Assembly (NCBI GenBank): GCA_963840965.1
Contig: CAWJAW010000009.1
Span: 256,487 to 320,486, forward strand
Source of the DNA: an uncultured Bacteroidales bacterium
GTDB taxonomy: Bacteria > Bacteroidota > Bacteroidia > Bacteroidales > VadinHA17
Length of the DNA stretch: 64,000 nucleotides
Reading direction: 5' to 3'
The position numbers were made by a program, and so were the translations under genes. Shown in pieces: positions 18,123 through 28,165 of the stretch (its first letter is position 1; each line of letters begins with the position of its first letter). The notes beneath the pieces were generated by a model. It was not told where the DNA came from. It saw only the letters and a program-made list of their open reading frames with translations, and made no database searches.

Positions 18123-18292
18123 AAATTCTTGTTTTTCTAGCTTCTTTTTCCTTCCTTTGCCCCTCAGAATATGGTGGAGAAATTTGAGCTGATTGCAACC
18201 ACAGGAAAAAATGCTAAAATGCCTCTGATCCCGTCTTTCCAGTCAACCATTATTCCCACCAAATGTTGATATGTTAACTTAACAATTAAGAT

Positions 18293-19639
18293 ATGGGTTA
18301 TCTATTTACATCCGAATCAGTTTCGGAAGGGCATCCTGATAAGGTTGCCGATCAGATATCAGACGCTCTTCTTGATGAGTTCCTCAAGTGGGATCCCGAA
18401 TCAAAAGTGGCATGCGAGACTTTTGTAACGACCGGTCTTGTCCTTTGCGGCGGGGAAGTCCGCACCGAAGGCTGGGTCGATGTTCAGGAGACGGCGCGCC
18501 GCGTTATAAGGGAAATCGGCTATACAAAGGCCGAATACAGGTTCGACTGCGATTCGTGCGGAGTGATTTCCACAATTCATGAGCAGTCGCAGGACATCCG
18601 ACAGGGAGTTGACAGGGAAAAGCCCGAGGATCAGGGAGCCGGCGACCAGGGCATGATGTTCGGCTTCGCATGCCGCGAGATGGACAATTACATGCCTCTC
18701 AGCATCGAACTGGCTCAGACTCTTCTGAAGCAGCTTGCCGCGATCAGGAAAGAAGGGAAACAGATGAAATACCTCAGGCCCGACAGCAAATCGCAGGTTA
18801 CCATTGAATACGATGACAACAACAAACCTGTCAGGATCGACACCATAGTCATCAGCACCCAGCACGATGAATTCGTTCTTCCCGAAAATAAATCTGCAAA
18901 GGCAGCTAAAAAGGCCGAGCAGGAAATGCAGAATAAGATAAAGGATGATCTGAAGAAAACCCTGCTTCCCCGGGTCAAAAAGCTTCTCCCTAAAGAAATT
19001 GGCAAACTCATCAATGACGATGTGAAGCTACTGGTCAACCCTACGGGCAAGTTCGTTATCGGCGGACCTCACGGGGACACCGGGCTCACGGGCAGGAAGA
19101 TCATAGTCGACACCTACGGCGGACATGGAGCTCATGGCGGAGGCGCTTTTTCAGGGAAAGATTCATCTAAAGTCGACAGGTCGGCAGCCTATGCCGCCAG
19201 GCATATCGCCAAGAACCTGGTGGCTTCGGGAGTCTGCGACCAGGCACTGATCCAGATAGCATATGCAATCGGGGTGGCACAGCCGGTTGGGCTTTATGTA
19301 AACACTTACGGAACGGCAAAGGTAAAGGACAAGAAAGACAGGATACTGCACGACAGCGAGATAGCAGCCGTGCTGAATAAGCTGTTCGACCTCAGGCCTT
19401 ATTCAATTGTTGAACGTTTCGGACTGAAGAACCCGGTGTTCCTTTCTACAGCAACCTACGGTCACTTCGGACGCATCAATGAAACCAGGGAGGTAGAGGT
19501 TTACTACCCTGTCAAAGACTCAAAACCTGTCGGAACCAACGGAAACGGCAAGGAAGTCTATAGAAAGAAAGTTGAGTTCTTCGCGTGGGAGAAGCTGGAT
19601 TATGTTGACAGGATAAGGAAGGCGTTCGGGTTGGTTTAG
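18293..19639 (+). CDS. metK: S-adenosylmethionine synthase
   Basis: [25 protein letters not shown].., [42 protein letters not shown]. Carries a Lys-rich insertion. Confidence 0.95.
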
Positions 19640-24520: not shown

Positions 24521-27068
<2,548 letters not shown>

Positions 27069-27135
27069 GGCGTGCGGTATGCGGCTTGCGGCGCGAGGCG
27101 TGTGGCATTAGGAGCGAAGCATGCGGTGAATGAAT

Positions 27136-27168
27136 TACCGCGTACCGCGTACCTCGTACCGCGAACCG
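27136..27168. repeat. 7-nt tandem array (TACCGCG-like) x4.5
   Basis: taccgcg taccgcg tacctcg taccgcg aaccg. Confidence 0.85.
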
Positions 27169-27201
27169 TAAACACAAATACCGGATCGATATTGTCAAGG
27201 C

Positions 27202-27294
27202 TTACTGCCCCATGCCCATAGGCATGAGCGGCTTTTGAAGGTCCTGACTGATCTGAAAAAAATGTTTCATTGTCATAGTGTTCATTTTTATCAT
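27202..27294 (-). CDS. candidate Met-rich upstream ORF (30 codons)
   Basis: MIKMNTMTMKHFFQISQDLQKPLMPMGMGQ has 7 Met in 30 residues. The first AUG lies inside the 3' strand of riboswitch helix P1 (GAUGAUAA). There is no homology evidence. Confidence 0.3.
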   Translation of the reverse strand: MIKMNTMTMKHFFQISQDLQKPLMPMGMGQ

Positions 27295-27397
27295 CTCCCG
27301 TTTTGCCGGGATTAGGTTTTGGCACCTTTCTCCCGATTGGCCGGGATTGGTTGCCAGGGTTTCACAGAGCCTAATCTCTCCGCCCTTCTTAATAAAA
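27286..27397 (-). promoter_or_regulatory. SAM-I (S-box) riboswitch
   Basis: The minus strand reads UUAUUAAGAAGGGCGGAGAGAUUAGGCUCUGUGAAACCCUGGCAACC-AAUCCCGGCCAAUCGGGAGAAA-GGUGCCAAAACCUAA-UCCCGGCAAAACGGGA-GAUGAUAA. This matches the S-box core (GGnGGAGnGA, UGAAaCCC, GGCAACC, GGUGCYAA) with P1-P4 pairings. It lies upstream of metY-hom-metH-metF. Confidence 0.8.
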
Positions 27398-27439
27398 ATC
27401 AAACACCCTTAAATGGAAGGAATATTTGATTTGTGGCCA

Positions 27440-27470
27440 CAAATGTAAGAATGATTTTGGAAAAAACAAA
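27440..27470 (-). promoter_or_regulatory. candidate Bacteroidota sigma-A promoter (-33 TTTG / -7 TACATTTG)
   Basis: On the minus strand TTTG (27470-27467), a 19-nt spacer, then TACATTTG (27447-27440). It sits about 40 nt upstream of the riboswitch. Consensus is recalled from Bacteroides promoter studies. Confidence 0.4.
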
Positions 27471-27475
27471 AAAAC

Positions 27476-27579
27476 GGTACGCGGTATGCGGTACGCGGTA
27501 TGCGGTACAGCGGTATGCGGTATGCGGTATGCGGTACGCGGTATGCGGTATGCGGTATGCGGTACGCGGTAAGCGGTAA
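27476..27579. repeat. 7-nt tandem array (GGTAYGC) about x14
   Basis: ggtacgc/ggtatgc units run without interruption apart from one 8-nt unit. This is the left arm flanking the four-helix-bundle gene. Confidence 0.9.
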
Positions 27580-27628: not shown

Positions 27629-27982
27629 TTACTTTTTTCTTGATAAGATTAACCTTGTTAGCATCGATGATATTTTATCGCATTCATCAACCAGTTGTTC
27701 CTGAGTTGACTTATCAACATATCCAATTTCAGATGCTATGATAAGCTGAGTCATCAGTTCAGCGGTAGATCCTTTTGCAATAAATAAGTATCGTATTGAA
27801 AGTCTGTTCGATCCCGATTCGTCTCCTTCAGCAATATTGCTGGAAATACTAACAGCGGCTCTTTGAATCTGATCCCTGAATCCAAAATCTCTCTTAAAAA
27901 ATTGATTTTGTGTTAGTTTATAGATCTTAACGGCAAGATCCCTGGCAATTTGCCAAACCTTAAGTTCCATGAAGTTTCCCAT
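27629..27982 (-). CDS. four-helix-bundle protein (23S rRNA intervening-sequence protein / S23p / Avd-like family)
   Basis: ELKVWQIARDLAVKIYKLT..FGFRDQIQRAAVSISSNIAEG....YLFIAKGSTAELMTQLIIA is the hallmark pattern of this family. 117 aa. Confidence 0.85.
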   Translation of the reverse strand: MGNFMELKVWQIARDLAVKIYKLTQNQFFKRDFGFRDQIQRAAVSISSNIAEGDESGSNRLSIRYLFIAKGSTAELMTQLIIASEIGYVDKSTQEQLVDECDKISSMLTRLILSRKK

Positions 27983-28065
27983 GATGCAGCGATTTAAAGA
28001 TTAATAAATTAATTAGCACGATATCCAAATATAATAAGAAACTTCACGCCGAGTACCACGCACAT

Positions 28066-28165
28066 CTTAATTCTTACCGCGTACCGCGTACCTCTTAACT
28101 CTTACCGCGTACCGCACACCGCGTACCGCGTACCTCTTAATTCTTGCCGCGTACCGCGTACCGCT
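28066..28165. repeat. higher-order array built on CGCGTACC (inverse of GGTAYGC)
   Basis: Three units of CTTAAYTCTTRCCGCGTACCGCGTACC(T). This is the right arm flanking the four-helix-bundle gene. Confidence 0.9.

Follow-up and report, generated by a model that had tools for sequence, protein, structure and literature searches.

A conserved methionine-codon leader open reading frame lies behind a SAM-I riboswitch aptamer, with its start outside helix P1, upstream of metY in an uncultured Bacteroidales bacterium

The leader of Salmonella mgtA combines a Mg2+ riboswitch with the proline-rich open reading frame (ORF) mgtL. In Mycobacterium tuberculosis, B12 riboswitches occur together with translated upstream ORFs (uORFs) (PMC11260477). 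Short leader ORFs also stand before amino acid operons, as with trpL, hisL, leuL and thrL in Proteobacteria and with Bacteroid-trp, and the supplement to PMC9723704 proposes Ile-, His- and Trp-type leader peptides for Flavobacterium psychrophilum. Cysteine-responsive uORFs comprise polycysteine leaderless small ORFs in mycobacteria (bioRxiv 10.1101/834739) and the uORFC-8-2 motif of cysS in Rhodobacterales (PMC8632094). The leader considered here, in which an S-adenosylmethionine (SAM)-I riboswitch aptamer is followed by a Met-rich small ORF, precedes the metY-hom-metH-metF operon on the minus strand of a 64,000-nucleotide (nt) stretch of DNA (the window; positions 256,487 to 320,486 of contig CAWJAW010000009.1) from an uncultured Bacteroidales bacterium of the VadinHA17 lineage. 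An initial annotation of the window had read this leader as a SAM sensor coupled to a Met-rich leader ORF that starts within the P1 helix of the aptamer. Both elements are real and their pairing is conserved, but the start codon lies outside P1. Their joint function is predicted from sequence.

The Rfam covariance model for SAM-I (RF00162) matched positions 27398 to 27285 of the minus strand over model positions 1-108 of 108, with a score of 70.7 bits (E=1.6e-14) that was well over the gathering score of 44.4, and full-length orthologous aptamers were found at the equivalent position upstream of Met genes in the related loci scanned. The aptamer in this leader is genuine, as had been supposed from an S-box core at 27397-27286 for which the same covariance scan had been suggested as a check; it is of the SAM-I class by covariance score and is predicted to bind SAM. 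Its architecture and full-length Rfam match, as well as its location upstream of Met/Cys genes, are those of Firmicutes SAM-I (S-box) elements. In contrast with the latter, neither a terminator/antiterminator nor a Shine-Dalgarno sequestor was found here, and the first downstream start is that of a 22-codon leader ORF, the regulated gene beginning approximately 260 nt further on. The TTTG pair with a 19-nt spacer that had been described as promoter-like was present upstream of the aptamer, and TAnnTTTG boxes of a similar kind preceded the leaders of relatives. The Bacteroides promoter consensus is of the -33/-7 type, and by comparison with it the pair is a putative promoter. The sequence block of the 5' leader hairpin, which abuts the 5' strand of P1, was also present in loci L107, L125 and L154; L107 has kept this block, and its aptamer has apparently been cleanly deleted between both P1 strands.

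Conservation of the small ORF was assessed in 80 orthologous metY loci from species-representative genomes, mostly of uncultured Bacteroidales. The initial annotation had proposed a search of related met leaders for a conserved Met-rich uORF, and a small ORF with the ending (M)PLMPM[CG]M[CGR][RQ]-stop recurred in approximately 65 of the 80 loci, with MNSIHLTHNNFIMPLMPMCMCR as the majority peptide. An in-frame AUG was located exactly 16 codons ahead of a CCN-AUG-NNN-AUG core in 60 leaders (the window and 59 loci; 56 distinct sequences), and the stop was at codon 23 in 48 of the 56 distinct leader sequences. Indels of 1-5 nt occurred upstream of the ORF, and frame-breaking indels inside it numbered zero. 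When metagenomes were scanned with the core motif, 73 further loci of the same architecture were recovered, 65 of them with exactly 22 codons, which together encoded 52 distinct peptides. Among single-base codon changes in 25 independent nearest-neighbour pairs, 40 were synonymous and 39 non-synonymous, the synonymous share expected being 0.184 (p=1e-10), and the differences at codon positions 1, 2 and 3 numbered 39, 26 and 59, respectively (p=7e-4). These findings indicate that the 22-codon ORF has been conserved, shows substitutions of a protein-coding pattern and is linked to Met-pathway genes, in agreement with the earlier claim of a real Met-rich small ORF behind the aptamer, and the coding signature points to its translation. 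Further copies of the ORF core were not found within the window. The 20-nt core motif CTNATGCCTATGGGCATGGG was also seen on several metagenome contigs (loci L081, L098, L108, L109, L111, L122, L126, L149 and L161) within conserved sequence of an unrelated kind that reads MPMGMGLL[LP]L[RP]RRF..., where it is probably part of a different element that shares the CAUGCC/GGCAUG palindrome.

The start of this ORF is not the one first proposed. The 30-codon Met-rich ORF that had been noted behind the aptamer, MIKMNTMTMKHFFQISQDLQKPLMPMGMGQ, was present, opening with the AUG at 27294-27292 and ending with the TAA at 27204-27202. According to the Rfam alignment, the 3' strand of P1 is GAUAAAAA (27292-27285) and takes in the G alone of this AUG, the A and U belonging to the junction. 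In relatives, the P1 3' strand and the core were 73 to 78 nt apart, and the P1 AUG was therefore in frame at the chance rate only, that is, in approximately one third of loci, and was out of frame in approximately two thirds; in four loci (L009, L010, L030 and L054) it was missing, with GAUAAUAA in its place. Thus, the proposal of a start codon inside P1 fails. The conserved start in the window is at 27270, which is the fourth AUG of the 30-codon ORF, and the distance from the end of the aptamer to the leader AUG was 13-17 nt in each of the 56 leaders that had both elements, including that of the window (14 nt). Relative to an internal Met background of 2.0% in six long ORFs of the window, the probability of at least 6 internal Met in 29 codons of the 30-codon ORF was 2e-5, and that of at least 3 Met among the conserved ORF's 21 internal codons was 8e-3; the majority peptide has 4 Met among these codons. 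The corresponding peptide of a close relative (L169) is MKHFFQISQYLQKPLMPMGMGR.

Similarity to classical leader-peptide attenuators was evident from the presence of a short leader ORF before an amino acid operon, a trait shared with the four proteobacterial leaders, with Bacteroid-trp and with the proposed Ile and His leaders of PMC9723704, as well as from the enrichment of end-product codons near the 3' end of the ORF, within RNA secondary structure. The differences are that the amino acid is Met, for which no leader peptide was found in the literature searched, that a canonical terminator/antiterminator pair was not identified, and that the leader ORF stands directly behind a riboswitch. The leader has two marks of an attenuator, a conserved short coding ORF and Met-codon enrichment, and lacks a third, an intrinsic terminator; it also has the mark of a riboswitch-controlled uORF, a start within reach of the switching helix in 56 leaders, with translation suggested by the coding signature. 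The hairpin with three Met codons that had been described from the window was found at 27226-27211, where CAUGCC-UAUG-GGCAUG contains three in-frame AUG codons, and its inner stem was predicted in 4 of 4 sequences of the window's clade. The equivalent hairpin of the main clade, which extends from codon 13 to the stop, was 91.6% paired across 51 leaders and almost invariant, and covariation cannot prove the hairpin because of this invariance. In the full-text literature searched, which takes in only a minority of subscription journals so that a prior description may exist, neither a Met-rich leader peptide nor a tandem of SAM-I and uORF was found, consistent with the earlier remark that a SAM sensor paired with a Met-rich leader was unfamiliar in Bacteroidota.

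The ORF was also encountered apart from the aptamer and upstream of other genes. Nine genome loci in at least five groups had kept the ORF and gave no SAM-I match. These included L008 and L053, in which TTG occupies the start position, L056, L058 and L060, with an AUG start and GGAG just upstream, L019, L023 and L043, with the form MA..PMCMCR, and L079 from Prolixibacteraceae, in which MNNRIHTVSFRCMMPMGMMMRMLSRMSK contains 9 Met in 28 codons. On metagenome contigs, the ORF preceded metX (without the aptamer in L107 and L179, with it in L173), aspartate kinase (together with the aptamer in L191) and a MetY paralogue (with no SAM-I match in L085). These distributions indicate an autonomous module that is specific for the Met pathway. 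In Cytophagales, SAM-I was followed by different Met/Cys-rich ORFs, including MSMSMPAMGCCCCCC of Pontibacter and ...NACCMCCMS of Marinoscillum, and another of the Met/Cys-rich ORFs in other orders reads ...CMMPMGMMMRM. A 36-codon version of the ORF (...NHFWFNNFTMPLMPMCMR) was noted in one lineage upstream of metX (L173), aspartate kinase (L191) and metY (L145), in each case behind its own SAM-I aptamer, and this lineage appears to have duplicated the two-sensor module as a whole. In L125, L154 and L164, an intact SAM-I aptamer and leader ORF stood before a remnant of metY, either truncated or with an internal deletion, beyond which came hom, the regulatory leader having outlasted its first gene; these three loci were rejected as an independent hom context since they are metY deletion remnants. 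A PiT-family transporter that follows a remnant of the leader (L088, L123, L190 and L174) was not counted as a target because a strong terminator and a rearrangement intervene, and 'CCMGMFF' ORFs of Chitinophaga (L071 and L073) were discarded because of overlap with the start of a divergent gene.

The combination also resembles mgtA/mgtL and the M. tuberculosis B12 riboswitch/uORF leaders, which also join an aptamer and a translated small ORF in one leader, and thereby two signals or layers of control, and for which Rho, in place of an intrinsic terminator, is likewise a plausible route of output. It differs from them in aptamer class (SAM-I) and phylum, in a uORF codon bias that would report the amino acid precursor of the riboswitch ligand, and in the occurrence of the uORF as a stand-alone module in aptamer-less lineages. 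With the Cys-responsive uORFs it shares runs of sulphur-amino-acid codons before sulphur-metabolism genes and the use of one ORF type over several operons (a 'ribulon'). In contrast with these, Met is the invariant residue here and Cys runs are limited to the Cytophagales versions; moreover, the mycobacterial polycysteine small ORFs unmask a downstream ribosome-binding site whereas such unmasking is not predicted for the present leader.

On balance, SAM-I and a Met-sensing leader peptide probably stand in tandem in this leader, as two sensors in series before metY-hom-metH-metF. The first sensor would be the aptamer (27398-27285) and the second the translated 22-codon ORF (27270-27202), which probably senses the supply of Met through the speed of the ribosome. 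The last third of the ORF would present the Met codon cluster, (M)PLMPMxMx-stop, in a hairpin that also holds the stop codon. When charged elongator tRNA-Met is low, ribosomes would stall on the AUG cluster and cover both the hairpin and C-rich leader RNA, and transcription or expression of the operon would go on, whereas with ample Met the ribosome would complete the ORF and depart, returning the leader to a default OFF state. SAM-I probably gates initiation at the leader ORF, a coupling suggested by the geometry of the two elements; for comparison, Barrick and Breaker (PMC2258182) took a distance of 15 nt or less as a criterion for direct translational control. Binding of SAM would shut P1, the A-rich 3' strand of which is 14-21 nt upstream of the leader AUG, in the stretch that a non-Shine-Dalgarno ribosome would need in single-stranded form. 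With P1 closed over that stretch, SAM would therefore lower leader translation and also give OFF, and the operon would be on only if SAM and Met-tRNA charging were both low. Such dual sensing is plausible.

The output of this two-sensor leader would be premature termination, possibly by Rho, from which ribosomes, whether translating or stalled, would protect the leader; this step is preferred but unproven. It is favored because the start region of metY was predicted to be mostly unpaired (0.77) and a canonical terminator was not found, and also because the ORF from codon 2 to codon 15 is rich in C and poor in G (0.289 versus 0.091, compared with 0.173 and 0.166 in the spacer; C was at least twice G in 54 of 60 leaders) and is followed by a long untranslated spacer. 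We infer stalling at the AUG codons, gating of leader initiation by SAM and the output step. A more extensive proposal, in which SAM-I gates the Met-sensing ORF, stalled ribosomes shield the RNA from Rho, and the ORF module has been copied before metY, metX and aspartate kinase across Bacteroidota as a Met 'ribulon', making this the first Met-specific ribosome-mediated attenuator, is offered only tentatively, and we doubt that it will hold in all its parts.

Several results weigh against a Met-sensing leader peptide with this output. First, a scan for sense-strand intrinsic terminators between the aptamer and metY in the window was negative, as the initial annotation had reported for the region after the aptamer, and so was a scan for canonical intrinsic terminators downstream of the ORF in L039 and L014. 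A 41-nt hairpin of the main clade (H3, RCCGGA...GUCCGGU with the tail UAUUUGU), which ends 25-28 nt before metY in approximately 28 loci, was absent from the leader of the window, as judged by a covariance model that matched 28 loci and not the window, and showed no significant covariation. A classical terminator, H3 included, was rejected on the grounds that scans were negative and that H3 is non-canonical and missing in the window. Second, an anti-P1 helix that would join ORF codons 2-13 to the P1 3' strand, predicted in the window's clade by minimum free energy (MFE) folding and RNAalifold, had a duplex energy no better than that of shuffled sequences in most of the 56 leaders (p=0.52 for the window) and was not relied upon. 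Third, a simulated stalled ribosome left the predicted accessibility of the metY start unchanged (unpaired fractions of 0.59, 0.60 and 0.58), and translational unmasking of metY by a stalled ribosome was rejected as unsupported, with approximately 60% unpaired throughout. Fourth, the window's own 22-codon ORF has only three internal Met. Finally, sequence comparison indicates that part of the "Met/Cys" pattern is a constraint of the RNA hairpin because codons 16-20 (AUG CCU AUG KGC AUG) are invariant, silent sites included, and because residues 19 and 21 vary (C/G/R/D) while the second base of both codons, and at codon 19 also the third, is fixed. In the main clade, the Cys codons probably have no sensing role.

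A start-codon sequestor of the main clade, AUGAAU/AUUCAU (95% paired, with one covarying pair), was set aside as inseparable from peptide conservation because it is missing in the window's clade and is kept in the aptamer-less L056. Alternative CCGG and CAGG-CCUG pairings were possible by eye in some loci and had no covariation backing. The most stable hairpin in the spacer was the GC-rich repeat hairpin of the window's clade (-27.3 kcal/mol in the window and -27.7 to -41.6 kcal/mol in L002-L004). The sole consistent platform-like feature was the distance of the start codon from the aptamer.

Among other explanations, one that we consider unlikely is that translation of the small ORF is a shield only, toggled by SAM-I, which guards C-rich RNA from Rho, other termination or decay, the Met codons being a by-product of the CAUG hairpin with no sensing of Met-tRNA. 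A core hairpin made of CAUG palindromes that are invariant at the nucleotide level, the C-rich and G-poor ORF, the constant spacing of its AUG and the existence of riboswitch-controlled uORFs of this general kind in M. tuberculosis (PMC11260477) all agree with such a shield. A pure relay would, however, have no input in the at least five aptamer-less groups that keep the ORF, a single hairpin does not explain 9 Met among the 28 codons of the Prolixibacteraceae version or the Cys runs in other orders, and the loop AUG (codon 18) is invariant though unpaired.

A little less likely again is an arrest peptide, the ...MPLMPMxMxR-stop tail of which would stall the ribosome when a small molecule (Met, SAM or homocysteine, for example) is present, much as tryptophan acts through TnaC and SAM through plant CGS1 MTO1, and not in response to tRNA charging. 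Although amino acid conservation with synonymous variation in the main clade extends past the Met codons (NSIHLTHNNF), Pro-Met pairs stand immediately ahead of the stop and length is fixed at 22 in most loci, the N-terminal two thirds vary freely between clades (MKHFFQISQDLQK, MARYFYIRTLSLQ and the 36-codon versions) and residues 19, 21 and 22 are variable. The quite different Met/Cys-rich peptides in other orders also fit codon sensing better than an interaction of the peptide with the ribosomal tunnel.

The coding signature bears directly on whether the ORF is translated at all, since an untranslated expression platform of the riboswitch, open in one frame by chance, would not be expected to produce the synonymous excess (p=1e-10) or the excess at third positions. 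It would also leave unexplained why start, frame and stop position are strictly kept while indels are free in the flanks and why the ORF persists without the aptamer, and there is almost no covariation in favor of an RNA-only element. The well-paired hairpins (92.8%), the invariance of the core as RNA, a second frame (+2) that is also mostly open and the failure of gene callers to annotate the ORF are in keeping with an RNA-only role, which nevertheless seems improbable. Met/Cys-rich tails resemble Cu(I)-binding motifs. A functional small Met/Cys-rich peptide, for example metal-binding or enzyme-modulating and merely co-transcribed with the operon, is very improbable despite this resemblance and a copper-sensing Cys-containing uORF mentioned for Bordetella in PMC9426467, since the ORF is located upstream of Met-pathway genes only, its Cys positions are swapped for Gly, Arg or Asp, in the window included, and its N-terminus is poorly conserved across clades.

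Coordinates of the leader and operon are collected in Table 1. The order metY-hom-metH-metF given in the initial annotation was confirmed by Pfam and NCBIfam. Two of these genes are each divided between overlapping ORFs in different frames, metH (24343-23453 and 23538-20680, with the Hcy-binding domain spanning the junction) and metF (20670-20314 and 20390-19716), by apparent frameshifts that represent either assembly errors or decay of the operon. Tandem heptamer arrays flank the leader (27475-27578, 27136-27168, 28049-28164 and 27027-27067). One, of CGGTATG/CGGTACG in 14.7 copies, is just upstream of the promoter, with inverted copies downstream of the small ORF, and another, of GTTTATC in 5.9 copies, adjoins the metY start; tandem repeats of 7-9 nt are also present in many further intergenic regions (61 Tandem Repeats Finder rows for the window). 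The next gene upstream (27629-27982, minus strand) belongs to the 23S rRNA intervening-sequence protein family (PF05635) and is separated from the met promoter by a heptamer array. Upstream of metK (18293-19639), at 18168-18227 on the plus strand, a SAM-II 'long loop' aptamer was noted (RF01726, 50.8 bits). In this genome, therefore, the biosynthesis operon has SAM-I and the SAM synthetase gene has SAM-II, at a distance of 9 kb, whereas Barrick and Breaker (2007) reported that the two classes did not occur together in any species; a SAM-II element is also located near the leader in L079 and L164. A 32-codon ORF that overlaps the SAM-II element was not Met-rich and was dropped.

Table 1. Features of the met leader and operon in the window, with the evidence for each
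Feature	Position	Strand	Evidence
Promoter-like pair: TTTG (27470-27467), 19-nt spacer, TACATTTG (27447-27440); putative promoter	27440..27470	-	direct reading
5' leader hairpin AAAUCAAAUAUUCC...GGGUGUUUGAUUU, abutting the P1 5' strand	27397..27431	-	MFE fold
SAM-I (S-box) riboswitch aptamer	27285..27398	-	RF00162, full-length match
AUG at junction/P1 boundary, start proposed initially; in frame in the window, not conserved as start	27292..27294	-	comparison of relatives
A-rich 14-nt spacer, aptamer end to conserved AUG	27271..27284	-	13-17 nt in 56/56 leaders
Conserved uORF, 22 codons + TAA, MKHFFQISQDLQKPLMPMGMGQ; Met at codons 1, 16, 18, 20	27202..27270	-	conserved start, frame, length and stop; synonymous and third-position excess
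Predicted hairpin enclosing Met-codon cluster and stop codon; inner stem CAUGCC/GGCAUG (27226-27211)	27194..27248	-	MFE folds
Conserved block AUCGAUCCGGUAUUUG, resembling the ...GUCCGGUAUUUG 3' arm and tail of main-clade H3	27175..27190	-	alignments
GC-rich hairpin of GGUACGC heptamer repeats and inverted copies, no U tail; window's clade only	27069..27168	-	Tandem Repeats Finder array 27136-27168
A-rich AUAAACG tandem repeat, 5.9 copies, up to metY start codon	27027..27067	-	Tandem Repeats Finder
metY (O-acetylhomoserine sulfhydrylase), first operon gene	25721..27025	-	Pfam; NCBIfam TIGR01326, 632.6 bits
hom	25724-24513	-	Pfam/NCBIfam
metH	24343-20680	-	Pfam/NCBIfam
metF	20670-19716	-	Pfam/NCBIfam

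To our knowledge, methionine is the textbook amino acid without known leader-peptide control of its synthesis, and a conserved Met-codon leader ORF would close this gap. Bacteroidota are a phylum that does not use Shine-Dalgarno pairing, and the two-input gate, if true, would explain how SAM-I functions there; a leader ORF start 13-17 nt past the aptamer would be a concrete expression platform where neither a terminator nor a Shine-Dalgarno sequestor was found. The finding also points to a gap in annotation, in that all seven peptide variants of the ORF that were looked up were absent, by exact match, from a collection of 15 billion proteins. Lineages with aptamer and ORF and lineages with the ORF alone, before several genes of the pathway, would provide natural controls for the combination of a metabolite sensor with a sensor of translation rate.

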